From a virus (taxonomy: Duplodnaviria; Caudoviricetes): 64,000 bases of DNA. Positions 2,543 to 20,042 of the stretch are shown here, one piece after another. The stretch lies in the IMG/VR virus record IMGVR_UViG_3300033068_001704, positions 1-64,000 of that record; one strand, given 5' to 3'. How positions within the stretch are numbered: the stretch's first letter is position 1; every line of letters starts with the position of its first letter. The notes beneath the pieces are model-generated. The model searched no databases. It was not told the DNA's origin and saw only the letters and a program-made list of their open reading frames with translations. The translations under genes were made by a program, and so were the position numbers.

Positions 2543-3187
2543 ATGTCCACGCAACGCAGAGCCGAGAACCTCCCGTCGTCCGTCGAGCGGTACGTCGAGG
2601 AGGGCAAGGCCCAGGGCCTCGATGAAGGGGCAGCCTGGGCCGTGGCTTGGAGCCGGTACTGCAAGTACAAGCAGCCTGGATCTCCGCACTGCACGAAGAA
2701 GCCTTCCGAATACTTCCCCGGGAAGTCGGCTAGACTGATCACGCGTGCATACCTTGCGGGGGTGTCGGCCTTGGACGAGAGGAAGAACGACGTGAGAATG
2801 CAGGACGACAAGTCGGCGATGACGAGGCTTGCGCGTCGTGTCGCGCTTCGCTCCATCACCGCGGCGAACGAGGGATCTGTCCTCTCAGGGTCCCAGCGCC
2901 AGAAGATCAACATGGCGTTGATCCGCGCGGGCCTCGACGGGAACAAGCGCTTCCGCTCAGCGGGGGCAGCTCTGTCGGCCATCGCTGGGGTGCTCGACGA
3001 CAACGGGGTCGAGTGGGGCGAGGCCCTTTCCGATTCCTCTCTGCGTCAGGCGAAGGGCCGGATCTCGATCGAACTCGCATCGAAGACCGACGACGCCTTC
3101 TCCCCCGTTCAGATCCGCAACACCACCCTCTCGTTTCACTGGGATACGTTCGATTCAGGCGTCGAAGCCGTCGCGTACCTGGGCTGA
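2543..3187 (+). CDS. hypothetical protein, N-terminus ChaB-like (EGAAWAVAWS)
   Basis: ATG 2543 within ORF 2228..3187; an internal start at MQDDK is also possible. Confidence 0.55.
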   Translation: MSTQRRAENLPSSVERYVEEGKAQGLDEGAAWAVAWSRYCKYKQPGSPHCTKKPSEYFPGKSARLITRAYLAGVSALDERKNDVRMQDDKSAMTRLARRVALRSITAANEGSVLSGSQRQKINMALIRAGLDGNKRFRSAGAALSAIAGVLDDNGVEWGEALSDSSLRQAKGRISIELASKTDDAFSPVQIRNTTLSFHWDTFDSGVEAVAYLG

Positions 3188-3199
3188 TCAGGAGTCGTC

Positions 3200-3907
3200 A
3201 TGAACCTTCGCGCCAAGCTCATTCGAGTCGCCCACGAGAACCCGGCCCTCCGCCCCCACCTCCTGCCCATCCTGAAGGACTCGGCACGCGAGGCCTCGGA
3301 GCCGAAGGAAGCCGCTCGCGGGTGGGTGATCCCCCGGAACTCCTACATCCCCAAGGACAACCCGACCGTCCGTCGTGTCGAGTCCCCCGAGGGCATGGAG
3401 ATCTGGGCATGGGAATCCACTGGGAAGACGAGCCCGGTCGTCACGATCCCCTACGCGATCGTGTTCTCGGGGAAGTCTCAGAAGCCGGTGTGGTACCACG
3501 CGTTCCGCAGCGATGCGTCGCGTGACAAGGCCATCTCGGAGGCCATCACGAACTACAGCGCCGTCGCGGCCATGAAGGCGCAGCGGATGAACGAGCGGAA
3601 GAACTTCCAGCACGAACTCAAGGTGGGGGACGTCCTCTACACGAGCTGGGGCTACGACCAGACGCAGGTGGAGTTCTTCGAGGTCACGGCCCTCCCGACC
3701 CCGAAGACGGTTCTGGTCCGCGAGATCGCTGGCCGGACCGTCAGCCAGGGGATGGATTCGAACAAGGTCGAGGCCGTCCCTGGGAAGTTCATCGGCCCGG
3801 CCCTGAAGAGGATCCCCGGGAAGTACGGGGTCAAGATCGACGAGAGTCGGACCGCGTACCTGTGGGACGGCAAGCCCAAGTACGTGACCAGCGGCGGAGG
3901 CCACTGA
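3200..3907 (+). CDS. hypothetical protein with N-terminal LAHxNP tag and SWGYDQT motif
   Basis: AGGAG SD; N-term MNLRAKLIRVAHENPALRPHLLPILK. Confidence 0.8.
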   Translation: MNLRAKLIRVAHENPALRPHLLPILKDSAREASEPKEAARGWVIPRNSYIPKDNPTVRRVESPEGMEIWAWESTGKTSPVVTIPYAIVFSGKSQKPVWYHAFRSDASRDKAISEAITNYSAVAAMKAQRMNERKNFQHELKVGDVLYTSWGYDQTQVEFFEVTALPTPKTVLVREIAGRTVSQGMDSNKVEAVPGKFIGPALKRIPGKYGVKIDESRTAYLWDGKPKYVTSGGGH

Positions 3908-6174: not shown

Positions 6175-7659
6175 ATGCAGATGCTGGAGAAAATCGCGGG
6201 CATGTTCGATGAGATGGACGTGCTTGCTCGCGCCCAGTTCATGGAAGGCTTCCTTGGCTACCGTCCGTTCTCCGCGATCCGCGGGGCAAACGGGAAGTTC
6301 GCCCTCCTCAAGAGGATCTCGCTCATGGCGAGCGAGATCGGGGCGGTCAATCCCGCCTGGCTTTCCAAGAGCGACACGGGCCTCTACCGGAGCGTGCTGA
6401 TGGCGGTGAGCCGTGCCATCCGCTCCGCCCCCGGGGAGCGCGCCATGGAGGGCGCTGACCTGCTCCAGACGATGATGGGTCTGGCGGGCTGGGAGGACGA
6501 GGAGACGGGCGAGACGCTGGAGGTCGGCGGCAAGTCGCCCTTCTGGCTCGCCGGCAAGTACGCCAGCACCGGCGCCTACGCGAAGCGGATGCAGGAAGGG
6601 GATCTGGTCCCCGACGATGCCTCCGGGCTCAGCGTGAAGCTCGCCCACAGGCGTGCCCTCGACGTCCTTCGCTCCGAGGCTCTCCGGGCCCGGAAGACCC
6701 GCGAGAACGCCGACGAGATCATGGAGGAGACCGTCTCGGACTCGTCGGATGACGACGGTGGGGAGTGGGACTCGATCGTCCAGGTGCTTCTCTCGGAGCC
6801 GAACCACCCGCTGTCGAAGAAGTTCTTCGGCTGGATCCAGAACGTCCTCCCGCAGGTCATGCGCGGCCCGAAGGCCTCGGAGGTCATGGGCGGGTACTTC
6901 CAGCTCCTCGGCTCAGGCGAGCTGAAGGGAGGCCGTGGCGTCGATACGCGCGCGGCTGAGATCTTGGGCATCACGCCCATGAAGCTCTACGACTTCAAGA
7001 AGACCTTCGAGACCAACGTCGTCTCGTACATCGAGGCGAACCCGTCCGCGCGAGCGTTCCTCCAGGGGCTGTTCGAGGACACGACCCTCATGAGGGATCT
7101 GTTCCGGGGTCGCGTCCGCCTCGCTGCGAGCCTCAGCCCGAAGGCAAAGGCTCTCCTCGAAGCTCTCGCTGGTCACCCGATCTTCAAGACCGAGAAGGTC
7201 GTCTCCCGCAAGAGCATCGGGGACGTGCTCAAGAAGCACAACTCGAACGGGGCCCCGCTCATGGAGCTGGCGAAGGGTCGGTTCATTTCCTACGACACGA
7301 CCGGGGACTCCCAGGTCTTCGGAGGTCGCATCTCGATCACCAAGAAGGGCTGGGCCGAGGCCAGCAACCAGGATCGAGTCGCCCGCAAGGTCGCTTCGAG
7401 GTTCATGGTCCTCGCTGCCCTTCGTTCGTACCGCTCGGCCTCGGTGACCATGACCCCCGAGAACCGGAAGAAGATCTTCGCGGCGGTCTGGAAGAAGTAC
7501 AAGTCGATGGGTGACGGTCGCATCACCGGCGGCAAGCACCTCGTCTTCGACGCGGCCGGCTCGGCCGTCGTCCCCAGGAACACCACCAAGGCCCTGGAGG
7601 ACATGACGGACGACCAGCTCGTGTCCTTCGCCCGAGAGAAGGGCATCCTCCGCAGCTAG
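6175..7659 (+). CDS. sigma-like protein with C-terminal extension domains
   Basis: AHRRALDVLR (region 2-like) and AAEILGITPMKL (HTH-like); followed by RLAAS/RVARKVAS/RSAS-linked segments. Confidence 0.45.
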   Translation: MQMLEKIAGMFDEMDVLARAQFMEGFLGYRPFSAIRGANGKFALLKRISLMASEIGAVNPAWLSKSDTGLYRSVLMAVSRAIRSAPGERAMEGADLLQTMMGLAGWEDEETGETLEVGGKSPFWLAGKYASTGAYAKRMQEGDLVPDDASGLSVKLAHRRALDVLRSEALRARKTRENADEIMEETVSDSSDDDGGEWDSIVQVLLSEPNHPLSKKFFGWIQNVLPQVMRGPKASEVMGGYFQLLGSGELKGGRGVDTRAAEILGITPMKLYDFKKTFETNVVSYIEANPSARAFLQGLFEDTTLMRDLFRGRVRLAASLSPKAKALLEALAGHPIFKTEKVVSRKSIGDVLKKHNSNGAPLMELAKGRFISYDTTGDSQVFGGRISITKKGWAEASNQDRVARKVASRFMVLAALRSYRSASVTMTPENRKKIFAAVWKKYKSMGDGRITGGKHLVFDAAGSAVVPRNTTKALEDMTDDQLVSFAREKGILRS

Positions 7660-8592
7660 GCCCTCCAGGAGGCCCTGAGAGACCCAAAGAGGGTCCGGCG
7701 TCTCCCTGCACAGCCCAAAGAGGCTCCTGGGCATCCTGGAGCCTCCCGTGAAGACCCGGCCTAAAAACCGGGTCTTTCGCGTTTCGGTGGCAGGTGGTCG
7801 GAAAAAATTGGTAGCCGAACGGATTCGGACTCAGTAGACTCGGCGCGGTTTGTTCTCTCCTCATCGAGGAGACGTGGATTCCCTCCCGGTCTGGACCTTC
7901 TCGTAGCCTTCGGGCTCGTGAACCAATGGACCGGGGTCAGAGAGGCCCCCCGCCAACAAGGGGTCTCACGGGGTCCAGACCCGAAAGGGTCGTAGAGGCT
8001 GAGGCCAGCGGGCGCTACCGAACGAACTTCCGCATCCTCTTCGGAGGTCGGATCCAAGGACCCGTCACAAGTCGGCCTACGCAATGAGGCCCTCGGGGGT
8101 GGTTACGTAAGAACGGACCCCTGTAGATACCAACCTCCCGTTCCCGTTGGGTGGACCTCCTTCTCGCCAGTCGAGAGGGGACAAAGGCCAGAGGGAACAG
8201 ACCCGACCTGCAAGGGCGGATCACCTAGGAGGGGAAGAGATGAAGATCTCTTCCTTTCGTAGAAAGGGAAGAAGAAGGTTGGTAGCTGATTGTGTCATCA
8301 ACAAATACTACTGCTGAAGACACTGAAATACCTGCCGAGTGAGTCGAAGACGAACGAGTTAGAGCTGCTGTAGACGCTGTAGACGACGACGTAGACGCTG
8401 AAGTTAGGGTAGCAAGAGCCTCCTCCAGTCCGAAAGGCAGGGAAGGTCAGACAGGGGAAGACGATTTCCCCTAGGATCAACGAGTCGGGGGACTCGTAAG
8501 GGATTCGTGTACCTATCAGGTCTATACGGCCTGTTTGGGAGCGAGATCTCCTGGTCCACGTATGGGTTGGGAGAGGGAAGAGAGAGCCCTCT

Positions 8593-8916
8593 GTGGGAAG
8601 CCCGTACCGGATGAACGTGAGCTTTCCTCGTCTTGTCGAGGATGCCTGGGACATCCTCCGAGACCGGAGGTATCCGTGCTTCCCTCATGGGAGTAGGGCA
8701 GCACCCTCTCGGGTGATGTACGTGTTCCCGAAGTTTGATCAGGGATACGCGTACGACCTCTGGGAGAGAGTGGTGGCTCCGACCCTCTTTGCTCTGAATC
8801 AGAGCCCTCCCCCCTACGCTGGAGGTTGGGACAACCCGGTCTCGAAGGACCTGGTAGACGCTGCTCTCAGGTCTGCCCTCTCTGAGTCGGCCTGGGCGAA
8901 CAAGATCGACTACTGA
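8593..8916 (+). CDS. hypothetical protein
   Basis: 107-aa ORF; start uncertain (GTG 8593 or ATG 8611). Confidence 0.45.
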   Translation: MGSPYRMNVSFPRLVEDAWDILRDRRYPCFPHGSRAAPSRVMYVFPKFDQGYAYDLWERVVAPTLFALNQSPPPYAGGWDNPVSKDLVDAALRSALSESAWANKIDY

Positions 8917-8982
8917 AACCCTTGGTTTCTGAGGGATCCTGGACCGAGTCGAAAAAAAGATCGCCTCCTTGTCGTTTTCTGT

Positions 8983-9011
8983 TTGACGCAAAGATCGACG
9001 TCCATTAGATA
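8983..9011 (+). promoter_or_regulatory. putative sigma-70 promoter of leader/tRNA operon
   Basis: TTGACG -35, 17-nt spacer, weak TAGATA -10, A/T-rich tract upstream. Confidence 0.45.
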
Positions 9012-9046
9012 ACCCACTCCAGGTTCATAGAACCAAGAACACCACC

Positions 9047-9178
9047 ATGCGTCCCCTGCATCACACCTGCCCGATGGCAATCTCGTATACGGCCGAAGCG
9101 CCGAATACGGATTGGTCCGTCGGCACGCTCGTGATCGGTCTCTTCGCGAGCCCCAAGCAGGAGCGTACCACCGGGTGA
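9047..9178 (+). CDS. attenuator leader peptide, 43 aa (MRPLHHTCPMAISYTAEAPNTDWSVGTLVIGLFASPKQERTTG)
   Basis: short ORF between promoter and terminator; all 20 amino acids; stop codon overlaps antiterminator. Confidence 0.65.
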   Translation: MRPLHHTCPMAISYTAEAPNTDWSVGTLVIGLFASPKQERTTG

Positions 9179-9207
9179 CCTGACCTTCCCATCTTCGGAT
9201 GTGACTC

Positions 9208-9246
9208 AGGCCACCCAGGGAAACCCGGGTGGCCTTTCGTCGTTCT
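9208..9246 (+). terminator. attenuator terminator hairpin before first tRNA
   Basis: AGGCCACCC-A-GGG AAA CCC-GGGTGGCCT followed by TTCGTCGTTCT. Confidence 0.7.
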
Positions 9247-9272
9247 AGGCCCTTCTGATTCTGACCGCGAAC

Positions 9273-9356
9273 GGAGCTTGACGTGGGACGGGTGTCCCCT
9301 CCTGACTGTAAATCAGGCGCCTTCGGGCATGGTGGGTTCGAGTCCCACCGGCTCCA
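9273..9356 (+). tRNA. tRNA-Tyr(GTA)
   Basis: CCTGA-CTGTAAA-TCAGG arm, long variable arm, GTTCGA T-loop. Confidence 0.9.
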
Positions 9357-9444
9357 TCTCGAAATCGACTAGACCTATACGAAAATCGAATACTACAGGG
9401 CGTAAGCAGTTGCATCCACACCAGAAACCCTGCGGCTCCTCTTT

Positions 9445-9516
9445 GGGGTCGTAGCTCAGCGGCAGAGCAGGGAGCTTTTAACTCCACGGTCGAGGGTTCG
9501 ATCCCCTCCGACCCCA
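9445..9516 (+). tRNA. tRNA-Lys(TTT)
   Basis: cloverleaf, loop CTTTTAA. Confidence 0.9.
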
Positions 9517-9533
9517 CTTTCTTGAGTACGTGC

Positions 9534-9605
9534 GCCGAGTTAGCTCAGCGGAAGAGCAGCGGGTTCTTAACCCGACGGTCGAGGGTTCGATCCCCTCACT
9601 CGGCA
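9534..9605 (+). tRNA. tRNA-Lys(CTT)
   Basis: cloverleaf, loop TTCTTAA. Confidence 0.9.
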
Positions 9606-9676
9606 TCGGGGTTCGTCTAACGGCAAGACGACGGTCTCTGGAACCGTCTATCGGGGTTCGAATCCCTGACCCCGAA
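9606..9676 (+). tRNA. tRNA-Gln(CTG)
   Basis: cloverleaf, loop CTCTGGA. Confidence 0.9.
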
Positions 9677-9827
9677 CTTCGGTGAGCACCCCCAGGGGCT
9701 CCCCGGTTTCAGGTTCCCTGACAACTGAATAGGATTCCTTCAAGGCAGCTCTCCAAAGGGCTGCTGGTCGAGATCTGAGCTGGCGTACCGGGAAACCGGA
9801 CGGGTGGTTCAGGGGCTCGACCTACAT

Positions 9828-9899
9828 TCCAGGATAGCTCAGCGGTAGAGCGCTCGGCTGTTAACCGAGATGTCGCAGGTTCGATCCCTGCTCCTGGAG
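9828..9899 (+). tRNA. tRNA-Asn(GTT)
   Basis: cloverleaf, loop CTGTTAA. Confidence 0.92.
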
Positions 9900-10026
9900 C
9901 TAGAGTGGGGGCTGTAGAGAAGCGCGGAGAGTTGTAGCTGTGGATCGCCAGGGGTGACCTGGAAGGATCAGGCGAAATCACGCGCTCTACTGCCTCAACT
10001 CGCCAACGTTCGGTTCGGTTCGCGTA

Positions 10027-10099
10027 TACGTCGGGTGCATGGGCACAGGCAGGCCTCCAAAACCAGCTCTGGGTTGGGTTCGATTCCCCCACGACGTGT
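10027..10099 (+). tRNA. tRNA-Trp(CCA), atypical
   Basis: loop CTCCAAA, T-loop GTTCGATT; mismatched anticodon stem and short D-arm. Confidence 0.6.
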
Positions 10100-10198
10100 A
10101 GATCTGAAAGCAGTGGGGGCAAGCGCCGGGGAGATGTCCTCGGAAGCACCCCTGCCAAGCGTCGGATCGAAAGGGCCTGGAGACATCCAGGTCTGATT

Positions 10199-10273
10199 GC
10201 CTTCACGGTCCAGTCTGGAGTGGACGCCTGGTTGTCAACCAGGAGATCGCGGGTTCAAATCCCGCTGGGGGCG
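10199..10273 (+). tRNA. tRNA-Asp(GTC)
   Basis: CCTGG-TTGTCAA-CCAGG. Confidence 0.9.
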
Positions 10274-10289
10274 CTGTTCCTGTTCGCAC

Positions 10290-10362
10290 GCCGCGATAGC
10301 TCAGTCGGTAGAGCGCTCGTTTGAAAAGCGGGAGGCCACTGGTTCAAATCCAGTTCGCGGCA
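10290..10362 (+). tRNA. tRNA-Phe(GAA)
   Basis: cloverleaf, loop TTGAAAA. Confidence 0.9.
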
Positions 10363-10509
10363 TAGGCCCTCCCCTCGGTCGCTCCGAGGGCACAAAGGCT
10401 GAACTCGGCGGTCGCGCTGCCGAGAGGGTTGAGAGTCGGTAATCCCGCGCTGGCGGGGAATCCGACCTGGGCGGAGCCGGCGCGTCGTCTCCGTCCGCAA
10501 CCCACCAAC

Positions 10510-10582
10510 GGGTCTGTAGCTCAGTTGGGAGAGCGTCCGGTTCGCAATCGGAAGGTCAGGGGTTCGACTCCCCTCAGATCCA
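10510..10582 (+). tRNA. tRNA-Ala(CGC)
   Basis: loop TTCGCAA, G3-U70. Confidence 0.9.
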
Positions 10583-10598
10583 CTCTTCTCGTCACCAT

Positions 10599-10672
10599 GT
10601 CCTCGTCGTCTAGCTGGCCCAGGACGGCGGCCTCTCACGTCGCAAACCGGGGTTCGAATCCCCGCGGGGACG
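10599..10672 (+). tRNA. tRNA-Glu(CTC)
   Basis: loop CTCTCAC. Confidence 0.9.
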
Positions 10673-10736
10673 CTTCTTTTCTTGTTCTCTCTCGCTCCGA
10701 CCGCCGAACACCGGGCTCGTGCCGGTCGGACGCGGT

Positions 10737-10809
10737 GCCCTCGTAGCTCAGTGGATAGAGCGCTCGTTTCCTAAACGGGATGTCGCTGGTTCGAGTCCAG
10801 CCGAGGGCG
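10737..10809 (+). tRNA. tRNA-Arg(CCT)
   Basis: loop TTCCTAA. Confidence 0.9.
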
Positions 10810-10812
10810 TGT

Positions 10813-10884
10813 GGTGGCCGTAGTGTAGTGGAAGCACGCGGGATTGTGGCTCCCGTAGCGCCAGTTCGAGCCTGGTCGGTCACC
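10813..10884 (+). tRNA. tRNA-His(GTG)
   Basis: loop TTGTGGC, G-1:C73. Confidence 0.9.
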
Positions 10885-10922
10885 CTCGTTCGATGAAGCT
10901 TCATGCGGGGCGTAACGGTCGG

Positions 10923-11339
10923 ATGGACAAGTACGATGACGAGGCGTACCGCAAGATCGTTGACACCTTCAAGTACCTCAACTGGACCTGCGTCCATGGG
11001 CACGTGAACGGAGATGCCATTCCTGGCCCAGATGAGGGGATCACGCACTTCACCAAGATGTGCGCGGTCTGCGGGGCACCTCGTCGGAAGAGGAAGCTCT
11101 ACAAGACGAGGGACTCGAACTCGGTCGTCCGCATCAGGTGCGACGTGGGCTTCGATTCTGACATCCAGGTCCTGAAGGACGGACGAGACCGCGGCTTCTG
11201 GGTGAAGACCCGCTCCGTTTCATGGGGCGGTGAGAGTGCTCGCGAGGATGAGGCAGCGGTCCTCCTCGAATGGTCGAAGTTGAGGAAGTTCCTCGCTGCG
11301 ATCACGAAAGCGCTGGAGAAGAAGAGATCGGATACCTGA
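10923..11339 (+). CDS. hypothetical protein with Cys/His motifs
   Basis: ORF 10893..11339; ATG 10923 lies 7 nt after GCGTAA motif. Confidence 0.6.
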   Translation: MDKYDDEAYRKIVDTFKYLNWTCVHGHVNGDAIPGPDEGITHFTKMCAVCGAPRRKRKLYKTRDSNSVVRIRCDVGFDSDIQVLKDGRDRGFWVKTRSVSWGGESAREDEAAVLLEWSKLRKFLAAITKALEKKRSDT

Positions 11340-11341
11340 AC

Positions 11342-11415
11342 GGGGCGGAAGTGACTTGGTTGTTCTAGCACGCCTGATACGCGAGCTGCGGTGGGTTCGA
11401 AACCCACCCGCCCCA
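11342..11415 (+). tRNA. tRNA-Ile(GAT), atypical D-arm
   Basis: GGGGCGG/CCGCCCC acceptor, loop CTGATAC, GTTCGA T-loop. Confidence 0.6.
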
Positions 11416-11559
11416 TCGTGAGACCGTCTGTTTGGCGAACGGGGCCGCAGACCTCTGAGCATGCCCCCGCGCTGCGGGGGAGACACCGGGATCGCCGCCC
11501 GGACACGTTCTGCGGACGTGATGGTGCAACACCCAGAGGCAGACGGCTCTCACGAACAT

Positions 11560-11631
11560 CGTCTCGTAGCTCAGGGGAAGAGCGCCGGCTCGACACGCCG
11601 GAGGCCGTGGGTTCGAAACCCACCGGGACGA
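11560..11631 (+). tRNA. tRNA-Val(GAC)
   Basis: CCGGC-TCGACAC-GCCGG. Confidence 0.88.
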
Positions 11632-11675
11632 CTTCGATTCAGCTTCGTTTCCCCTGTTATAGGGCCATCGGGTAG

Positions 11676-11930
11676 ATGGAAAACCTCCGCTCCAAGCTCA
11701 TCCGCCTCGCCCACGCAAACCCCGAGTTCCGGAAGGACATTCTCCCCCTCGTCTCGAAGACGGCGGACGAGACCGTCTACCAGGTTCGGGATCTCAAGGG
11801 AGAGCTGATCATCTGGGAGGTCCCCAAGGGCTCGCACGCCCAGAAGGTGAAGACCCCGAAGCTGGTCGAGGAGTTCCCGTCTCGTGGGGCCGCGAAGAGC
11901 TTCATCCTGAAGGGACGCGAGAAGGCGTAA
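11676..11930 (+). CDS. small protein with N-terminal LAHxNP tag
   Basis: MENLRSKLIRLAHANPEFRKDILPLVSKTA. Confidence 0.75.
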   Translation: MENLRSKLIRLAHANPEFRKDILPLVSKTADETVYQVRDLKGELIIWEVPKGSHAQKVKTPKLVEEFPSRGAAKSFILKGREKA

Positions 11931-12075
11931 GGTAGGGGATGCGAAAGCTGCACGTCCTCCTCACCCAACCTCGGGCCGTGCTGAGATTCTTCCTTCTCAC
12001 CCGCCCGATGCCTCTCTTCGTGTTCCGTGCCCTCGCGCCTCTGGCGGGAGTGCGACCTGACCTGTTCGAGAACGA

Positions 12076-12148
12076 GGGTCCGTAGCTCACCTGGGAGAGC
12101 GCCTGCATGGCATGCAGGAGGTAGTCGGTTCGAGTCCGACCGGATCCA
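12076..12148 (+). tRNA. tRNA-Ala(GGC)
   Basis: CCTGC-ATGGCAT-GCAGG, G3-U70. Confidence 0.9.
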
Positions 12149-12374
12149 GTGGCCGAAAGGCCTGACATCTTCCCCTCCGTGCCGTCAGGGAGGGATCGGA
12201 GTATAGAGACCCCCACCTTCGTGGTGGGCTAGGCCACTCACTGACGGCAACCAACAATCCTGCGGTAGGGGCGGGTCACCGCACGTCGTTTCCCTACCGG
12301 GTTCTCACCGTTCGCCGACAACAGGATAGGAGGCGATGAACGGGGGGGACGATCCCATGAATGCGGTGAATCTC

Positions 12375-12448
12375 GGGTCCTTAGCTCAGTTTGGGAGAGC
12401 GGCGGCTTTGCAAGCCGTAGGTCGTCGGTTCGATCCCGACAGGATCCA
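12375..12448 (+). tRNA. tRNA-Ala(TGC)
   Basis: loop TTTGCAA, G3-U70. Confidence 0.92.
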
Positions 12449-12460
12449 CTTCTAGTTCAC

Positions 12461-12533
12461 GCCCCCATAGCTCAGTTGGAAGAGCGCGCGCTTGGTATGT
12501 GCGAGGTCGCCGGTTCAACCCCGGCTGAGGGCT
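12461..12533 (+). tRNA. tRNA-Thr(GGT)
   Basis: loop TTGGTAT. Confidence 0.88.
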
Positions 12534-12729
12534 CTTGTTCGTGGCTCCACTCTCTGCTTCGGCACGAAGGTCGGGATAAGTCCCGGCAACGCAAACCCCT
12601 CGGGAAACCGGGGTGTTAGGCGTGGGCTGCGAGCGCATCATCTACCTCACCGGGCGTGGTGAGATCGGTCGCAGGACCGAGCCCTCGGTAGGGGGTGTGT
12701 GCCTACGGGACGCCTTCCCTTGGGTAGCT

Positions 12730-12802
12730 GCGACCATCGCCTAGTGGAATGGCACCTGGCTTCCAACCAGGAACAACGCGGGTTCGAACCCCGCTGGTCG
12801 CT
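12730..12802 (+). tRNA. tRNA-Gly(TCC)
   Basis: CCTGG-CTTCCAA-CCAGG. Confidence 0.9.
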
Positions 12803-12821
12803 CTCGGGCGTAAGATTGGGG

Positions 12822-13175
12822 ATGGACCCCTTCCGAACGTTCACCAAGATGAGCTGCTTGGGTTGCTCTTCGCCCCTCTTGTCCGAGGGGCCTTGCTCAT
12901 CGTGTGGGTTGAAGGCCAACCCGAGTCTCGATCAGGACAACGTCTCGATCGAGACCAACTCCCTCGAACTCCGAGTTCTTCTGTACTGGGCCCTGAGGGG
13001 GGCCGATGCCTCTGCTGCCTCTGGGGACAAGCAGGGGGTGGAGACGCAAGGGGTGTGTGAGGCGATTGCCTCTCGGTTCGAGGCTCAGCTCGGTCGTCCT
13101 CTCTCGGACGATCGGGAGTACAGACAGCGAATCGTCGGGGGGAACCCCCTGTACGATGTACCTCCGCGGGTGTAG
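12822..13175 (+). CDS. hypothetical zinc-ribbon protein (CxxC...CxxC)
   Basis: ATG 8 nt after GCGTAA; 3' end overlaps next tRNA. Confidence 0.5.
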   Translation: MDPFRTFTKMSCLGCSSPLLSEGPCSSCGLKANPSLDQDNVSIETNSLELRVLLYWALRGADASAASGDKQGVETQGVCEAIASRFEAQLGRPLSDDREYRQRIVGGNPLYDVPPRV

Positions 13176-13237
13176 CTCAGCGGCAGAGCATCTGCTTCCC
13201 AAGCAGAAAGTCGTCGGTTCGATCCCGATCACCCGCT
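13166..13237 (+). tRNA. tRNA-Gly(CCC)
   Basis: TCTGC-TTCCCAA-GCAGA. Confidence 0.92.
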
Positions 13238-13255
13238 CTCACAGTTCAGTTCTTC

Positions 13256-13415
13256 GGGGACCTAGCATATCAGGAAGTGCTTCTGCCGGTTTGCACCCGG
13301 TGGGTGTCGGAAGCGGCAGGGAAGGGACGGAGGGGTAGCTGCCCGAGTTCATCCAGGTCGGCAAGACATAACGCCCGTGTAGGGCGTGGTTTGGGTTCAA
13401 TTCCCAAGGTCTCCA
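13256..13415 (+). ncRNA. oversized tRNA-Ala-like RNA (160 nt)
   Basis: GGGGACC/GGTCTCC-A acceptor with G3-U70, T-arm TTGGG-TTCAATT-CCCAA, TGC loop, ~89-nt variable region. Confidence 0.6.
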
Positions 13416-13418
13416 TAC

Positions 13419-13489
13419 GGCGCGGTCTTCTTGGGAAGGACGCCGATTGCAACCCGGCGAAGGATTGGGTTCGAATCCCTCTCGCGCCT
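13419..13489 (+). tRNA. tRNA-Cys(GCA)
   Basis: loop TTGCAAC, U73, short D-arm. Confidence 0.8.
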
Positions 13490-13498
13490 CTCGTTCCT

Positions 13499-13572
13499 GT
13501 CCCTGTAGCTCAGTCGGATAGAGCGCTTGCCTTCTAAGCAGGATGTCGGTGGTTCGATCCCACCCGGGGACG
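13499..13572 (+). tRNA. tRNA-Arg(TCT)
   Basis: loop CTTCTAA. Confidence 0.9.
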
Positions 13573-13823
13573 TTGGAGGTTCTGGTGGGTCAGCATCGAG
13601 CAGCGCTTCGAGCGAAGCGGTGGAGAAGGCGGGAAGAGCGTCGGGCTCAACGCCAACGGCTCATCAAGTTCATGACGGGACCGATCCGGTCCCTGTTCGG
13701 GTACGCGGCGGTTGGGCGGTCCATCTTCACGGTCACCCCGATCCCCGAAGACTGATGCGGACCTGCCACGTGTAGGAACCGTTACGGGTTCGTTCGCCCT
13801 CGGGGGGGCGGACCCAGCTACTT

Positions 13824-13897
13824 GTCCGCGAAGCTCAACTGGATGAGCGCCCGGCTACGGACCGGGAGGTTGGCGGGTTCGACTCCCTCCGCGGACG
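13824..13897 (+). tRNA. tRNA-Arg(ACG)
   Basis: CCCGG-CTACGGA-CCGGG. Confidence 0.9.
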
Positions 13898-14026
13898 CTT
13901 CACTTCGTGTCGCTGCATCTCCCGTAGAGCGTGAAGATGATGGCGAACACGAGCACGATCCTGAGTCCTTGGCGCATCAGATGGGTGTGACCTGGAACGG
14001 GCGTGCAAGCCAACCGAAGTTGGTTG

Positions 14027-14098
14027 GTCCTCGTAGCTCAGAGGAAGAGCACTGGTTTCCGAAGCCAGGTGTCGCAGGTTCGATTCCTGCCGGGGACG
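14027..14098 (+). tRNA. tRNA-Arg(CCG)
   Basis: loop TTCCGAA. Confidence 0.9.
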
Positions 14099-14112
14099 CT
14101 GTTACGAAATGA

Positions 14113-14188
14113 CGCGGAGTGGGGGAGCAAGGTCGTCCCCGCTGGGCTCATAACCCGGAGATCGCAGGTTCAAATCCTGTCTCCGCAA
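14113..14188 (+). tRNA. initiator tRNA-fMet(CAT)
   Basis: C1:A72 mismatch, three consecutive G-C pairs in anticodon stem. Confidence 0.9.
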
Positions 14189-14316
14189 GGACGGAAGCCG
14201 GACGGATAACGACCCCCAAAGGTTGCCGTCGGGTCCCCGTGGTCTGGTGCGCGCCACGTAGAAGGGTCTCTGCGAGTAGCTCCGGAGCGAGTCGCAGAGA
14301 GCGCACTTTCCAACAA

Positions 14317-14388
14317 CCCTCCGCCCAGTGTGTTCTGGCGGCATCCTTCATACGGGTGACTTCGTCGGTTCGATTCCGACCGGAGGGA
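14317..14388 (+). tRNA. tRNA(CAT), elongator Met or Ile2, atypical D-arm
   Basis: CCCTCCG/CGGAGGG acceptor, loop TTCATAC, GTTCGA T-loop. Confidence 0.65.
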
Positions 14389-14569
14389 TAGCTGAATCGC
14401 ACCAGGGGTTCGTGGGCAGGCCGCCGCGAAGCTCGGGACGAGGAGGTGCAATCGTACTCAGGCCGCTGACGACAAGTCAGGGGGGAGCCGTACAAGACGG
14501 CGTAGACGGGCGGGGAGCCCGGACCTGTGTGGATGTCGGTGAAAGACCGACCGAGTAGTACGATGACAT

Positions 14570-14641
14570 CGGGGTGTAGCGAAGTGGTATCGCGCTCGGT
14601 TCGGGACCGAGAGATCACAGGTTCGATCCCTGTTACCCCGA
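14570..14641 (+). tRNA. tRNA-Pro(CGG)
   Basis: CTCGG-TTCGGGA-CCGAG. Confidence 0.9.
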
Positions 14642-14647
14642 CTTCTT

Positions 14648-14719
14648 GCACGAATAGCTCAGCGGCAGAGCAGCGGTTTTACACATCGCCGGTCGGGGGT
14701 TCGATCCCCTCTTCGTGCA
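14648..14719 (+). tRNA. tRNA-Val(TAC)
   Basis: loop TTTACAC. Confidence 0.9.
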
Positions 14720-14816
14720 CAACGCCCTCGGGGGGAGAACCCCAGGGGGCGTCCAGCGCGGAGGCGCAACTCTTTCGGGGGAGGACCCCGAGAGTCGCCT
14801 TCGGTTCTGGACAAAC

Positions 14817-14897
14817 GGGGACGTGGTGTAATGGCAGCCACGCCAGACTAAGGATCTGGTGCGTAACAGCGTGTGGGTTCGACTCCCACCGTCCCCA
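14817..14897 (+). tRNA. tRNA-Leu(AAG)
   Basis: CCAGA-CTAAGGA-TCTGG, long variable arm, A73. Confidence 0.85.
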
Positions 14898-14920
14898 CTG
14901 TTCGAGTTCGAGACCCCATT

Positions 14921-15006
14921 GCCGGGGTGGTGGAATTGGCAGACACACTGGTTTCAGAAATCAGCGGCCCTTCGTGGTCATGGGGGTTCGACTCCCCCCT
15001 CCGGCA
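14921..15006 (+). tRNA. tRNA-Leu(CAG)
   Basis: loop TTCAGAA, long variable arm. Confidence 0.9.
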
Positions 15007-15067
15007 CTTCTCGGGACCTCCCCGAGGACTTCTCAATCAGGGAAGGATAGTAGAGACTGAGGCACCT

Positions 15068-15149
15068 GCGGGACTGGTGGAACTGGCAGACACACCGGCT
15101 TCAAACCCCGGCGATTTCGATCATGGGGGTTCGACTCCCCCGTCCCGCA
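15068..15149 (+). tRNA. tRNA-Leu(CAA)
   Basis: loop TTCAAAC, long variable arm. Confidence 0.88.
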
Positions 15150-15170
15150 CACAGCAGAAAATAGGGCACC

Positions 15171-15701
15171 ATGCAGAACACTCTCGTCTTGGACCAGGGG
15201 TACCAACCCCACAGGGTCGTGTCTTGGCAACGGGCTGTCATGATGTGGTGGGACGGCAAGGTCGAGGTCGTCTCGGAGTACGACGAGGACATCCGGTCGG
15301 TCTCGATGACGATCAAGATGCCCGCGGTCGTCCGCTTGCTCCACCGCGTTCGTGGTCGTCGTCAGGCCGTGAAGTTCAGCCGTCTGAACGTCGCGACCCG
15401 CGATGACTTCCGGTGCCAGTATTGCGGGGACTCGCTCCCGCTCTCGAAGCTCACGTACGACCACGTTGTTCCGCGCTCCAAGGGCGGGCGGACGGTGTGG
15501 GAGAACATCGTGATGGCTTGCTACGGGTGCAACGAGACGAAGTCGAACCGGACGCCTGAGCAGGCGGGGATGAAGCTGCGCAAGCAGCCCGTCAAGCCGG
15601 CTCACCTGCCGGTCGTCACGTTCCGGTTCAACACCGGATCGATCCCGGATGCCTGGGCGTCTTGGATCTACTGGAACGGGGCTCTCGAAGAGGGCTCCTG
15701 A
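15171..15701 (+). CDS. HNH endonuclease (McrA-like)
   Basis: RDDFRCQYCG...TYDHVVPRSKGG...WENIVMACYGCNETK. Confidence 0.92.
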   Translation: MQNTLVLDQGYQPHRVVSWQRAVMMWWDGKVEVVSEYDEDIRSVSMTIKMPAVVRLLHRVRGRRQAVKFSRLNVATRDDFRCQYCGDSLPLSKLTYDHVVPRSKGGRTVWENIVMACYGCNETKSNRTPEQAGMKLRKQPVKPAHLPVVTFRFNTGSIPDAWASWIYWNGALEEGS

Positions 15702-15768
15702 GGTCTTCCCCCCGAGCTGCCGTGTCGCCCTACTCGGCGCTCGGGGGGACGTCTCGAACGCAGATTCT

Positions 15769-15840
15769 CGGGGTGTGGCGAAGTGGTATCGCACTCGGCT
15801 GGGGGCCGAGGGATCGCAGGTTCGAACCCTGTCACCCCGA
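15769..15840 (+). tRNA. tRNA-Pro(GGG)
   Basis: CTCGG-CTGGGGG-CCGAG. Confidence 0.9.
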
Positions 15841-15845
15841 TTCGT

Positions 15846-15931
15846 GGAGGGCTAGCCTAATGGCAAGGCACCGGCTTTGAACACCGGCGTGGGTGTAACA
15901 GCCCTTGGGGGTTCGAGTCCCTCGCTCTCCG
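15846..15931 (+). tRNA. tRNA-Ser(TGA)
   Basis: loop TTTGAAC, long variable arm, G73. Confidence 0.88.
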
Positions 15932-15941
15932 TAGAGTGCGT

Positions 15942-16115
15942 ATGAGCAACAAGCCGGTTAGGAAACTCGACCTCCTTCGTGATTGCAACGACCAAGGGGT
16001 CGCTCCGAAGGACTTCATGGCGACCTTCTGTCAGCGGTGTCGCAATCCTGAGTGCGTCAACGCTGAGTGGGCGGGCTCCGGTCGGAAGGGGGATCGCCTG
16101 GGATCTCTCCGTTAG
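15942..16115 (+). CDS. small Cys-containing protein (57 aa)
   Basis: MSNKPVRK...FCQRCRNPEC; below ORF track cutoff, read manually. Confidence 0.45.
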   Translation: MSNKPVRKLDLLRDCNDQGVAPKDFMATFCQRCRNPECVNAEWAGSGRKGDRLGSLR

Positions 16116-16139
16116 AAAGTCTCTCCAAGGTCGAGATGT

Positions 16140-16352
16140 ATGAGGCTCCCGCGAGACCGAGAGAAGTTGCTCCTCGAAGGCAAGTCGATGAACCGGGCTG
16201 AGGTCTTCCTGAACGGGAAGCTCATGAGCCGCGTTTCGGAGGTCGATGACGAGGAGAACTGGGTCGAGGTCAAGAAGACCTCAGGCGGCGCCGTCTTCTC
16301 CGAGCGCAAACACGGGAAGGTGAAGATCACCTTCCCCTCGAACGAGGCCTGA
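16140..16352 (+). CDS. small hypothetical protein
   Basis: 70-aa ORF. Confidence 0.55.
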   Translation: MRLPRDREKLLLEGKSMNRAEVFLNGKLMSRVSEVDDEENWVEVKKTSGGAVFSERKHGKVKITFPSNEA

Positions 16353-16427
16353 ACACATGAACACCACGTCGAGGAAGGGGGCCGTCTTCTAGGTTCCCGG
16401 GGACTCACTCCCCGGGCCAGGAGACAC

Positions 16428-16601
16428 ATGGCCCGTACGAAGTTCCGACCGAAGCGCAGGCCGTATCTGAAAGAGGATACGTCCTTCCGACGGATCTCGA
16501 TCCGACGCTGGAAGGCGCGCTGCCGCCAGGCGGCCCGCAACCACGACTGGGAGGCCTTCCCGATCCCGTTCAAGGGGACGGAGGGGTGGGACTCATGGTG
16601 A
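16428..16601 (+). CDS. small Arg-rich basic protein (57 aa)
   Basis: AGGAG SD; MARTKFRPKRRPY...GWDSW; read manually. Confidence 0.6.
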   Translation: MARTKFRPKRRPYLKEDTSFRRISIRRWKARCRQAARNHDWEAFPIPFKGTEGWDSW

Positions 16602-16807
16602 GTCCCCGCTGGGTCAAGGCGATCGAGAGTCGCCTTGGACGTCGCTCCCCCAAGCGCATGCCGACGAAGCACCTCTCGACTTCGATCTGGTACGACTGGC
16701 CGTACGCTGGACCCTCTCCGGGTCGGCAGCTCCGGGAGTTCGTGAAGTCGGCCAGGAAGAAGGAAGCGCGAGAGGCTTGGCGCATCGAGCGTCTCGACGA
16801 TGAGTAG
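16598..16807 (+). CDS. small basic protein
   Basis: GTGA overlap with previous ORF. Confidence 0.5.
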   Translation: MSPRWVKAIESRLGRRSPKRMPTKHLSTSIWYDWPYAGPSPGRQLREFVKSARKKEAREAWRIERLDDE

Positions 16808-17110
16808 AGTGAGCTGCGGGACGCCCTGACGGGGAACAGCCGTCGCCGGACTACATCCGGAACCCCACGGCGCTGCGTGCTAGCCGCAGAGCACGTACGT
16901 GGGGGCGCGAGTGGGAAGCTCGACGTCCCGTACAACAAGTTCGTGCTGGAAGGAAAGCGGTAGCTCCGCACAAGCTCCAGCACCGCGTCACCTCCTACCC
17001 TAGAGGTGTAACCGCGCGTGTAACAGCCCGGGGGGCCCCCCGATGCCGGCGTCGGTTCGCTGGTTGGGTGGACCACCCCCCGGGTGACTGGGTTCAAGAA
17101 GGAGGGCGAC

Positions 17111-17611
17111 ATGGCATGGCATCCCATGTCGGATTCGGTTCGAGATCTCGCGGCACGCCATGGCGTCAGCCTCCGGAATCAGTTGACGTGGCGGAAGCAG
17201 ATCTACGACGGCAAGGGCATCGCGTTGTGGTGGTACAACCGAAATCGGAAGCAGGTGCTGCCACTTTCGGACCACGACATCGCACATGACATCGCCCACC
17301 ATGTCGTAGCAGCGCCTGAGCAGCGAGACCTGCCGGAGTACGGGCTCGGCAATCCGTTCGCTGTGTTCGGGGAGACGTTCACGGTGCGCGTCGTAGATGA
17401 TGAGGAGTGTGAGATCCAAGAGTATCTCGCTCAACGTCTGACTTGTCTTTGGGGCCAGCGCTACGGATTCCAGTTCCTGCTCTCAAGCGAGCCGGGCTGG
17501 GAGATCAGGTCCTGGGAAGAGTACGGGGCCTACAAGAACCAACTGCTGATCGAGTCTGGTCGTCTCGACCAGGTAGAGCAGCGTTGGCAGGAGGTTCTGC
17601 CGAGGGTCTAG
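17111..17611 (+). CDS. hypothetical protein with HDIAH motif
   Basis: AAGGAGG SD before ATG 17111. Confidence 0.65.
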   Translation: MAWHPMSDSVRDLAARHGVSLRNQLTWRKQIYDGKGIALWWYNRNRKQVLPLSDHDIAHDIAHHVVAAPEQRDLPEYGLGNPFAVFGETFTVRVVDDEECEIQEYLAQRLTCLWGQRYGFQFLLSSEPGWEIRSWEEYGAYKNQLLIESGRLDQVEQRWQEVLPRV

Positions 17612-17623
17612 GGAGAGTTCACT

Positions 17624-17710
17624 GGAAGGGCTAGCCGATTGGTGACGGCACTTCGTTGGAAACGAAGCGAGCCTGAAAGGGCCTTGCGGGTTCGACCCCC
17701 GCTCCTTCCG
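17624..17710 (+). tRNA. tRNA-Ser(GGA)
   Basis: CTTCG-TTGGAAA-CGAAG, long variable arm. Confidence 0.9.
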
Positions 17711-17751
17711 TTCGTGGGTGCGATGTCGGCTCTATCAAACGGAGACGTAGG

Positions 17752-19068
17752 ATGAGCACGCGACACGCAAGGATCATTGCCCTTTCTCCGGCGACGGTGA
17801 AGGACTTCCGCAACGACTTCCTGACCCTGGTCGGGAACGTCAAGCGAGTGAAGAACTACGACGACGCGTTGAAGCTGAGGGACGGGATCCGCTCGTGGCG
17901 TGACGTGTTCGACGACTGGCTCAAGCAGATCCGATCGGACATCGAGAGCCGCAAGCGAGAGACCCCTGGCAAGGCAGCGCTCCCGGAGCACGAGATCGAC
18001 ACGATGCTCGCGGGGATCAAGCCGGCGTGGGAACTCTCCACCGAGCTGATGAGGTTCCCCCTTCGGGTCTACGACCCGGAGATGGAGCAGTGGCACCCGA
18101 AGTCCAAGCTCTTCGCTGAGTACGCGAAGGAGGTTGGAGCCTGGGACACGCGGATCCGGAAGAAGGCGCCCACCGCCTGGAAGGCGCTGGAGTACGCCGC
18201 GGACTGGGCGACCCGATGGGGCGACGACGCCATCAAGGTGAAGGTCAAGGAGACCCAGAACCTCACGGTCGAGGGGTTCCGCGTCCGGCTCAACGGGTTC
18301 GAGGACGGGGACGTGAGCGGGGAGTTCATGCCCCGCCTGGCAGAGGGTCTCCGCTTCTACCGGGAGCGTGCGAAGAAGGTCCTGCCGCTGCTGATCTCGA
18401 AGCAGCTCCCGTTGGTGGTCAACGCCGACTGGGGCAGCAACGGTGGGGATGCCGCAGCAACCTACGAGCGAGACCACATCTCGCTGAGCCCCTGGGGGCA
18501 TGCCACCAAGGACCTCCGCGGCTTCGCCCACGTGATGGCCCACGAGATGGGTCACCACATCTACAAGACCTACATCTCCGGAGAGTCCGAGAAGGCGTGG
18601 ACCACCTTCATCAAGGGTGGGGAGATCCCGCTCGACCTGAGGGACCTCGCGAAGGCTCTCGCGAAGTACGGCGACAACCCCACGGTCATCGACGACAAGC
18701 TCCGGGCGCAGGATCCGATCCTCGCCCTTCAGTTCGAGGGCTTGCAGGAAGATCGGCGGTACAAGGACCAGGACCTGTTCAACCTTCGGGGTGTCCGGGA
18801 GTACCTGGCCGAGAACAAGGACCCGATCGTCTACGTCAGCCGGAGGCCGATCACCGGGTACGCGCAGAAGAACCCTGAAGAGGCGTTCTGCGAGGTCATC
18901 GGGCTTCTAGTCGGGTACGGCCCGAAGACCGTCCTCCCTGAGGTCGCAGGCTTCGTGAGGTCGATCCTCCCGGAGATCCGTCTCGGGTCGCTTCGGAGAG
19001 AGGTCATCCGCTTGGCTCACGCGAAGCCGGAACTCCGACCCCATCTTCTGCCGCTTCTGAAGCGGTAG
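17752..19068 (+). CDS. zincin-type metallopeptidase with C-terminal LAHxP tag
   Basis: AHEMGHH plus distal YAQKNPEEAFCE; C-term SLRREVIRLAHAKPELRPHLLPLLKR. Confidence 0.75.
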   Translation: MSTRHARIIALSPATVKDFRNDFLTLVGNVKRVKNYDDALKLRDGIRSWRDVFDDWLKQIRSDIESRKRETPGKAALPEHEIDTMLAGIKPAWELSTELMRFPLRVYDPEMEQWHPKSKLFAEYAKEVGAWDTRIRKKAPTAWKALEYAADWATRWGDDAIKVKVKETQNLTVEGFRVRLNGFEDGDVSGEFMPRLAEGLRFYRERAKKVLPLLISKQLPLVVNADWGSNGGDAAATYERDHISLSPWGHATKDLRGFAHVMAHEMGHHIYKTYISGESEKAWTTFIKGGEIPLDLRDLAKALAKYGDNPTVIDDKLRAQDPILALQFEGLQEDRRYKDQDLFNLRGVREYLAENKDPIVYVSRRPITGYAQKNPEEAFCEVIGLLVGYGPKTVLPEVAGFVRSILPEIRLGSLRREVIRLAHAKPELRPHLLPLLKR

Positions 19069-19084
19069 TTCCCGTTCTGTTCCT

Positions 19085-19171
19085 GGAAGAACCAGCCGAT
19101 TGGCGACGGCACTCCGTTCGAAACGGAGCGAACCTGAAAGGGTCTTGGGGGTTCGACTCCCTCTTCTTCCG
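19085..19171 (+). tRNA. tRNA-Ser(CGA)
   Basis: CTCCG-TTCGAAA-CGGAG. Confidence 0.9.
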
Positions 19172-19177
19172 TTCCTC

Positions 19178-19263
19178 GGAGAGTACGTACATTGGCAAGT
19201 ACACCTGGGTTGCTAACCTGGGGCGACCCGAAAGGGCGCGGGGTTCGAATCCTCTGCTCTCCA
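19178..19263 (+). tRNA. tRNA-Ser(GCT)
   Basis: loop TTGCTAA, long variable arm. Confidence 0.8.
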
Positions 19264-19345
19264 TCGTGGATCCGACGTTCCGAGGCGACTGTCGGACGCT
19301 ACAGACAGTCGCGATCCGCGATTTGCTCAATGGTATGGTCTTCCC

Positions 19346-19591
19346 ATGAAGATGCGAGCGCTGTCCCACGAAGAAGTCGAAGAGGCAATCCGTCAATTCG
19401 TGAGGGAGAAGTACGGGGAGGAGGTCGTAGAGGCGGAGCCGACGGGATCGGCCCCCGAGGATCTCCTCAAGACCCAGGGGGAGGTTGGTCTCCTGTTTCC
19501 CAGATGGGAATGGGGGAGCCGGCAGCCGAAGGGTGGCGGGAAGGGTGAGAAGGTCCGAAACTTCTTCCTTGACGTCATCATCAGAGAGTGA
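19346..19591 (+). CDS. small hypothetical protein
   Basis: 81-aa ORF. Confidence 0.5.
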   Translation: MKMRALSHEEVEEAIRQFVREKYGEEVVEAEPTGSAPEDLLKTQGEVGLLFPRWEWGSRQPKGGGKGEKVRNFFLDVIIRE

Positions 19592-19595
19592 ACTT

Positions 19596-19667
19596 GCGGG
19601 TGTAGCTCAGTGGAAGAGCGCCTGGTTGCCATCCAGGAGGCCGAGGGTTCGAACCCCTCTACCCGCT
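19596..19667 (+). tRNA. tRNA-Gly(GCC)
   Basis: CCTGG-TTGCCAT-CCAGG. Confidence 0.92.
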
Positions 19668-19699
19668 CTCGGAGGAATCCTTTTCGGTTGTGATTCCTT

Positions 19700-19771
19700 G
19701 CCCTGATAGCTCAGTGGAAGAGCACCTGTTTTGTAAGCAGGGGGTCGTCGGTTCGAGCCCGACTTGGGGCC
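19700..19771 (+). tRNA. tRNA-Thr(TGT)
   Basis: loop TTTGTAA. Confidence 0.88.
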
Positions 19772-19790
19772 CTGGTTCCAGGTTCGTTTC

Positions 19791-19863
19791 GCCCTCGTAG
19801 CTCAGTTGGAAGAGCGCCGATTTCGTACGTCGGAGGTTGCCGGGTCGGTTCCGGTCGAGGGCT
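19791..19863 (+). tRNA. tRNA-Thr(CGT), degenerate T-loop
   Basis: loop TTCGTAC; T-loop reads GTCGGTT. Confidence 0.75.
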
Positions 19864-19869
19864 CTGTTC

Positions 19870-19941
19870 GGCCCCTTCATCTACGGGTTAGGATTGCGGC
19901 CTTTCAAGTCGCACAACGGGGTTCGAGTCCCCGAGGGGTCA
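19870..19941 (+). tRNA. tRNA-Glu(TTC)
   Basis: loop CTTTCAA. Confidence 0.88.
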
Positions 19942-20013: not shown

Positions 20014-20042
20014 TCTCGGGGTCTTCGAGGGCGTAACCTCTG

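Follow-up and report, generated by a model that had tools for sequence, protein, structure and literature searches.

A conserved leader encoding all 20 amino acids as a probable ribosome-mediated attenuator of a phage tRNA array

In the current study, we describe a locus of a huge uncultured phage that is, in our judgement, rather likely to be a ribosome-mediated (leader-peptide) transcription attenuator, gating the phage tRNA operon of about 40 genes and reading overall decoding. The phage probably makes its own tRNAs when ribosome decoding is slow. The DNA analyzed here (the window) is a 64-kb stretch from the start of an IMG/VR virus record of 222 kb (63% G+C; the record is about 50% complete). 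An attenuator at this position had been put forward in an earlier note based on the letters of the window, and this interpretation is now supported by a conserved short open reading frame (ORF), by its amino acid completeness, by two covarying helices, and by constrained folds. The large terminase (TerL) groups the phage with a clade of huge uncultured phages, for which 61 related loci were found in IMG/VR, together with one 485-kb GenBank record.

The tRNA array lies on the plus strand (9273-20013), decodes all 20 amino acids, and starts with tRNA-Tyr (9273-9356), 27 nt 3' of position 9246, where the T-rich tail of a predicted terminator hairpin ends. The earlier count of 40 tRNAs holds, with 37 predicted by ARAGORN by default and three more at a relaxed threshold, i.e., tRNA-Trp (10027-10099), tRNA-Cys (13419-13490), and a second tRNA-Met (14317-14388). 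Because their scores are under the ARAGORN default cut-off, these three tRNAs may be structurally unusual. The tRNA-Trp gene of the window is syntenic with tRNA-Trp in relatives. A PD-(D/E)XK gene (PF11645) is located within the tRNA array of the related locus L114 (3884-4345) as a lineage-specific insertion.

Directly 5' of the leader, this clade has a conserved gene of 107 amino acids (8593-8916 in the window), with 31 homologs, all of similar length, and no match in Pfam. A divergent gene of the CCA-adding enzyme (PF01743) was found 5' of the 107-amino-acid gene and the tRNA locus in L109 (383-1591), L114 (597-1790), L115 (597-1814), and L116 (477-1667), and L116 also has a lineage-specific thaumatin-family gene (2859-3812) inserted between the 107-amino-acid gene and the leader. 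Besides, a noncoding stretch of the window (7860-8170) shows DNA-level conservation across four related phages, with an insertion of about 100 nt in two relatives. RNAalifold predicted a long-range closing helix (CCAAC.../...GTTGG) and GNRA-capped hairpins for this stretch, with compensatory changes in 13 of 54 predicted pairs, and no match was found in Rfam, making it a candidate for a new structured RNA adjoining the tRNA locus. In G001 and G004, both the 107-amino-acid gene and this upstream RNA are present, and neither tRNAs nor a leader follow downstream.

The leader is preceded by a putative sigma-70-type promoter on the plus strand (8983-9011), composed of the -35 element TTGACG (8983-8988), which had been noticed before as promoter-like and is indeed present, a 17-nt spacer, and the -10 element TAGATA (9006-9011). 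Transcription is expected to start near 9018. A conserved A-tract (GAAAAAAAGA) and a GTCG(A/T)TTT block are located 5' of the -35 element (8951-8978, plus strand), are nearly invariant in ten homologous loci, occur once in the 222-kb record, and may form an UP-element-like or regulator site. The pattern T[AG]GAC[AG], 17 nt, and TA[AG]nnN is in register in nine of the ten homologs, and the order of A-tract, GTCG(A/T)TTT, T[AG]GAC[AG], 17-nt spacer, and TA[AG]nnN is common to nearly all ten. Sigma-70-type promoters with an UP-like element are typical of stable-RNA genes, and the segment 8983-9011 is probably a promoter of this kind. A simple consensus promoter/terminator scan flagged neither the leader promoter nor the terminator by its criteria.

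The leader ORF (9047-9178, plus strand) consists of 43 codons from an ATG start to a UGA stop (9176-9178) and contains all 20 amino acids and 32 distinct codons, exactly as read from the sequence before; the list of isoacceptor codons given at that time was also correct. All 20 amino acids were present in 0.39% of the 43,862 43-codon windows in the likely genes of the phage (222-kb record), a comparison already suggested in the earlier note. Random frames free of stops, with local or genomic composition, were complete in 0.2-0.5% of cases. The 222-kb record has 357 ORFs with a length of 38-48 codons, of which the leader ORF is the single complete one. This rarity within a single genome is a post-hoc observation, and the test therefore had to come from relatives. 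Taken with its relatives, the all-20 content of the leader is far beyond chance. Confirming a caveat that had been raised for the window, a Shine-Dalgarno sequence before the ATG is absent, there and in every homolog, unlike many genes of the phage, which have purine-rich sites at -15 to -5. Since there is no Shine-Dalgarno sequence, initiation at the leader would have to use the CA-rich 5' UTR, predicted to be unstructured.

A blastn comparison of GenBank phages with the locus gave only tRNA-level matches and no relative of the leader, and the 494-amino-acid upstream protein, used as a search seed, had no relatives. In IMG/VR, an exact hairpin search gave no match, while a degenerate hairpin pattern gave only two relatives that had already been found. 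The DNA comparison with five related records revealed synteny in G002 and G003 over the leader, the hairpin, and the first tRNAs, and a covariance model (R1) run over 44 TerL-related records detected the element in G002 and G003 only. A quick look at the array heads of G005, G017, G028, and other out-of-clade TerL relatives with large arrays showed no short all-20 ORF directly 5' of them. Homologs of the 107-amino-acid gene were used as seeds in JGI metagenomes and in a collection of 5.8 billion proteins, followed by contig look-ups; the JGI metagenome scan was based on protein alignment A5, the five-sequence alignment A4 being too diverse.

This yielded 11 distinct leader sequences including that of the window, all from one clade: L073 (1576-1716, minus strand), L074 (1404-1538), L102 (823-957), L103 (3573-3707), L112 (3129-3266), L113 (1991-2131), L114 (2988-3116), L115 (2948-3088), L116 (3992-4138), and L119 (1074-1208). 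Each leader is located directly 5' of an array beginning Tyr/Lys-Lys-Gln-Asn and is always the first feature of that array; in L116, the leader still adjoins the tRNAs after the insertion of the foreign thaumatin-like gene behind the 107-amino-acid gene. A covariance model built from three sequences recovered all homologous leaders and, run against the genome of the window's phage, found no second site.

The completeness of the leader is retained in these relatives, as only two of the 11 leaders fall short of 20 amino acids, each by one (L112 lacks His and L115 lacks Trp), and the other nine are complete. That a missing leader amino acid would correspond to a missing tRNA is ruled out by L115, which lacks Trp in the leader yet has a tRNA-Trp. 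The residues that complete the set are found at different places, with His in five alignment columns (four sites), Lys, Phe, and Ile in several columns each, Cys in column 8 in the window and in column 25 elsewhere, and Tyr shifted in L115. No regulatory amino acid is enriched in the leaders, nine of which have all 20 instead, and Ala makes up 10% of the pooled leader residues, as in the phage proteome. Shuffling residues within alignment columns gave a summed distinct-residue count of 181.4 +/- 2.6, whereas 198 was observed. This value was not attained in any of 20,000 shuffles, nor did any of them yield eight or more complete sequences. Such column shuffles ignore ancestry, and evolution was therefore simulated on a tree, using the FastTree topology, an all-20 root, site-specific rates, and a divergence calibrated to the data. 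These simulations produced 0.4-1.0 complete leaves of 10, and at least eight complete leaves in none of 1,500 runs per setting, in any of six settings. A conservative pairwise completeness test, in which all identical positions were fixed, reached P values of 0.004-0.02 in the two pairs with the highest divergence, whereas close pairs gave no significant result. As shown by this comparison, all-20 completeness is under selection, beyond shared ancestry. The earlier suggestion to look for conserved all-amino-acid leaders in relatives was thus borne out, as completeness is kept far beyond shared ancestry in both the shuffles and the tree simulations.

The comparison of the relatives also argues for translation of the leader ORF. 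All 11 leaders (42-48 codons) start at a homologous ATG and end at a UGA in frame within a conserved segment (segment 2, described below). Ten sequences were also aligned with MAFFT without regard to codons; each of the 25 gap runs within the ORF, which together represent at least seven separate indel blocks, is 3, 6, 9, or 12 nt long, compared to gap runs of 1, 2, 3, 4, and 6 nt 3' of the stop. Hence the arrangement expected in relatives by the earlier note, with a conserved ORF and ATG and the stop in the antiterminator segment, was found there, together with frame-preserving indels. It could be argued that the region is an untranslated structured leader RNA in which the open frame is coincidental, given that the Shine-Dalgarno sequence is absent and that the region is rich in conserved structure. 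We consider this extremely improbable, as the frame-preserving indels are confined to the ORF, the ATG and stop are conserved in 11 sequences, and completeness cannot be selected without translation.

The product of this translation seems to matter little. The pairwise identity of the leader peptides ranges from 20 to 93% (mean 45%, ten sequences), and substitutions are evenly distributed across codon positions. For dN/dS, five diverged pairs were computed, four of which gave 0.9-1.2, and closer pairs gave 0.18-0.75. These values fit the view that what is conserved is the act of translation and not the peptide. One peptide stretch, 'SYPA..PNT.VWCAL', is fairly conserved and overlaps an RNA hairpin in the ORF (P1; 9078-9114, plus strand; core 9085-9093 with 9100-9108). 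RNAalifold predicted 14 pairs for P1 on ten sequences, several with compensatory changes; pairing in its core helix reaches 88%, two sequences show double changes from GC to AU there, and one compensatory change is synonymous on one strand side and non-synonymous on the other. P1 might act as a pause hairpin for RNA polymerase.

The locus could also be an ordinary gene for a small protein that ends in a terminator of its own, the tRNA array being transcribed independently; such a gene would likewise show a conserved ORF and a hairpin behind it, and one stretch of the peptide is fairly conserved. This reading is very unlikely in our opinion, considering that dN/dS is near 1 in diverged pairs, that the conserved peptide stretch coincides with the RNA hairpin and its compensatory, partly synonymous changes, and that a small protein offers no rationale for all-20 completeness. 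Moreover, the 27 nt that separate the hairpin from tRNA-Tyr in the window hold no conserved promoter-like block.

The second line of evidence for an attenuator is a pair of mutually exclusive RNA helices between the ORF and the first tRNA. The GC-rich hairpin with a T-rich tail that had been noticed 27 nt before the first tRNA is present on the plus strand, with a GC-rich stem of 11 pairs closed by a GAAA loop (9208-9235; about -23 kcal/mol), followed by an interrupted tail (TTTCGTCGTTCT; 9235-9246, plus strand), which fails the 5-T-in-8 rule of the consensus scan. Termination would occur at this hairpin (9208-9246), with an efficiency made uncertain by the interrupted U-tract. The 3' arm of the terminator (segment 4; 9224-9235, plus strand) competes for segment 3 (9206-9218, plus strand) with segment 2 (9171-9183, plus strand), the 5' strand of the predicted antiterminator, which holds the leader stop and nearly repeats the sequence of the terminator 3' arm. 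The complementarity between the stop region and the terminator arm, also pointed out before, is confirmed for 9173-9183 with 9206-9216, with one A.C mismatch, i.e., the A of UGA. A small apical hairpin, CATC-TTCG-GATG (9190-9201, plus strand), lies between segments 2 and 3, and in nascent-RNA folds a hairpin of differing sequence is found at this place in all ten homologs. A possible segment 1 (9118-9122, plus strand) would pair with GGGUG of segment 2 (9173-9177). This assignment is tentative; the 1:2 helix predicted by RNAalifold has five pairs (columns 75-79 with 142-146) and no compensatory change, and in the window it is weak, with one pair broken and one wobble.

Both helices of the switch covary among the relatives. 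In ten sequences, the terminator is 90% paired, with four compensatory pairs, and its covariation exceeds that of all 500 shuffles and all slid controls. The antiterminator helix (segments 2/3) is 78.5% paired in ten sequences, with compensatory changes in three pairs, two of which (UGA/UCA vs UAG/CUA) are specific to the antiterminator because the terminator arm does not include them. With P1 added to the antiterminator, four compensatory pairs were counted, and their covariation was reached by one of 500 shuffles. In L116, segment 2 (U to C), segment 3 (A to G), and segment 4 (U to C) changed together; the usual UGA is lost through the segment 2 change, and the frame closes two codons further on at the next UGA, still in segment 2. 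Duplexes of segments 2 and 3 were more stable in cognate than in non-cognate combinations (-19.0 vs -16.8 kcal/mol; permutation P=0.006). The compensatory changes in both helices provide the covarying pairs that the earlier note had proposed to look for in relatives, and comparison shows that the terminator and antiterminator helices are both under selection.

The predicted folds agree with a switch between these two helices. Nascent RNA ending at segment 3 forms the same antiterminator in all ten sequences, at -20 to -31 kcal/mol, and the terminator energies range from -21 to -30 kcal/mol across the ten sequences. For the full-length RNA of the window, the terminator is favored by about 9-10 kcal/mol. 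A constrained fold, proposed before as a check, gave the terminator when 9165-9190 was masked and the antiterminator when segment 4 was withheld.

A translated ORF and real hairpins could also serve another output, namely the processing or stability of the tRNA precursor (RNase entry, 5' protection) or polymerase pausing. Precursors of tRNAs undergo heavy processing in general, and the U-tract is poor by the rules of E. coli and is parted from the stem in four homologs, where the tail begins with UGAAG. Most homologs still have U-rich tails, and the stop lies inside the near-copy of the terminator 3' arm, in a layout of exclusive helices of similar stability, both covarying, which is the specific design of termination attenuators. 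Weighing these observations, we regard an effect on processing or pausing as quite unlikely and prefer transcription attenuation.

Based on these features, we propose a scheme for attenuation at this locus. The promoter at 8983-9011 would start a transcript whose first feature is the 43-codon test ORF with every amino acid, and RNA polymerase would continue through segment 2 with the UGA, the small hairpin, segment 3, and segment 4. A ribosome that keeps pace and arrives at the stop would cover segment 2, as expected from the size of its footprint, so that segments 3 and 4 pair into the terminator and transcription ends before tRNA-Tyr. If any aminoacyl-tRNA is short, the ribosome would be delayed on the ORF, leaving segment 2 free to pair with the emerging segment 3; the terminator would then not form, and transcription would read through into the approximately 40 tRNA genes. 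The net effect would be to tie the tRNA output of the phage to the current decoding capacity of the cell.

The promoter, termination at the hairpin, the direction of the switch, and the race between ribosome and polymerase are the parts of this scheme that we infer. Because the terminator is favored in the full-length RNA, read-through would depend on co-transcriptional kinetics, and because the sensing residues are scattered across the whole ORF, we favor a kinetic race that would total the delays across all codons, rather than a single regulatory stall site. A stall in the last five or so codons would still mask segment 2, and early stalls might give no signal if the weak 1:2 helix is real. 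The idea that anticodon nucleases (PrrC/RloC/PARIS) act as the trigger is speculation.

The same translated leader and switch might instead sense general ribosome availability or the inhibition of translation, for example, upon host shut-off, ribosome-targeting toxins or antibiotics, or as a matter of infection timing, the all-20 content then being a by-product of an 'average' test message. The weak ribosome-binding site would make the leader sensitive to initiation, and without any ribosome the first fold of the nascent RNA is the antiterminator. In addition, the attenuator of the whiB7 upstream ORF (uORF) answers many translation stresses (PMC10274678). Rare residues would not all be required in an 'average' message, whereas the single His, Cys, Lys, and Phe codons of the leaders have been relocated, and the completeness exceeds the tree-based expectation. 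Sensing of general availability is hence fairly unlikely in our assessment, and we retain the reading of overall decoding through an all-amino-acid leader.

Extending this reading, the locus might represent a homeostatic 'decoding meter' in giant phages, in which the transit time over an all-amino-acid message sets the transcription of replacement tRNAs, and might belong, as one family, to a wider class of tRNA-gene attenuators that is still unpublished. We would give this proposal an even chance. If such a class exists, the phage could answer the loss of host tRNAs from shut-off, starvation, or tRNA-cleaving defenses.

Large phage tRNA arrays are usually discussed in terms of codon usage or of escape from tRNA-targeting defenses. 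A full-text literature search gave no account of the attenuation of tRNA genes, nor of the regulation of phage tRNA arrays; such control has been described for amino acid genes, and we found none in print for tRNA genes. If our interpretation is true, tRNA genes would here be under a feedback control exerted by decoding itself, the first such case to be described. Classical attenuation would then reach beyond one amino acid to the whole genetic code, and the locus would provide a compact, portable sensor of global translation capacity. It would also be a rare case of selection on the composition of a peptide and not on its sequence.

Considering known systems, a permissive Rfam cmscan of 7000-21000 (E up to 0.1) gave only tRNAs and tRNA-like chance matches, with no match to Trp_leader, His_leader, Leu_leader, Thr_leader, Phe_leader, other leader families, or the T-box. 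By its architecture, as far as can be judged from the sequences, the locus appears to have the structural features of leader-peptide attenuators and to differ from them in codon content and in the genes regulated. Like trpL, hisL, leuL, pheL, thrL, and the multivalent ilvGMEDA and ilvBN attenuators, it has a short ORF, probably translated, 5' of the genes that would be regulated. It further shares with the leaders of enterobacterial amino acid operons a stop next to or inside the antiterminator segment, exclusive antiterminator and terminator hairpins, an upstream hairpin that could pause the polymerase, and a choice of fold that would be made by the position of the ribosome. Unlike these leaders, the phage leader is phage-borne and would regulate tRNAs instead of biosynthetic enzymes, has no run of a single amino acid and is kept complete for all 20, lacks a Shine-Dalgarno sequence, and resembles none of them in sequence.

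T-box riboswitches likewise couple tRNA charging to terminator read-through via an antiterminator. However, a T-box binds one uncharged tRNA without translation and regulates synthetase or amino acid genes, whereas the phage element would need a ribosome. In pyrBI-type attenuators, as proposed here for the phage leader, the outcome is set by how closely the ribosome trails RNA polymerase through the leader ORF. In pyrBI, it is the speed of the polymerase (UTP) that varies, and the ribosome physically prevents the terminator hairpin from forming, whereas in the phage leader the variable would be ribosome speed, acting via a separate antiterminator helix.

The nearest published logic for the sensing of multiple amino acids is, by analogy, that of the whiB7/wblC uORF of mycobacteria and other Actinobacteria, which, like the phage leader, is a uORF of variable sequence coupled to antitermination (PMC10274678). 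The whiB7 uORF responds to the knock-down of many tRNA, synthetase, and biosynthetic genes, and its alanine-enriched composition sets which starvations are sensed (PMC10274678). With 10% Ala and tRNAs as the downstream genes, the phage locus is not an Ala-enriched uORF 5' of a WhiB-family regulator. While the whiB7 uORF is enriched in alanine and controls a transcription factor, the phage leader is even and complete in its composition, and its output would be the supply of tRNAs.
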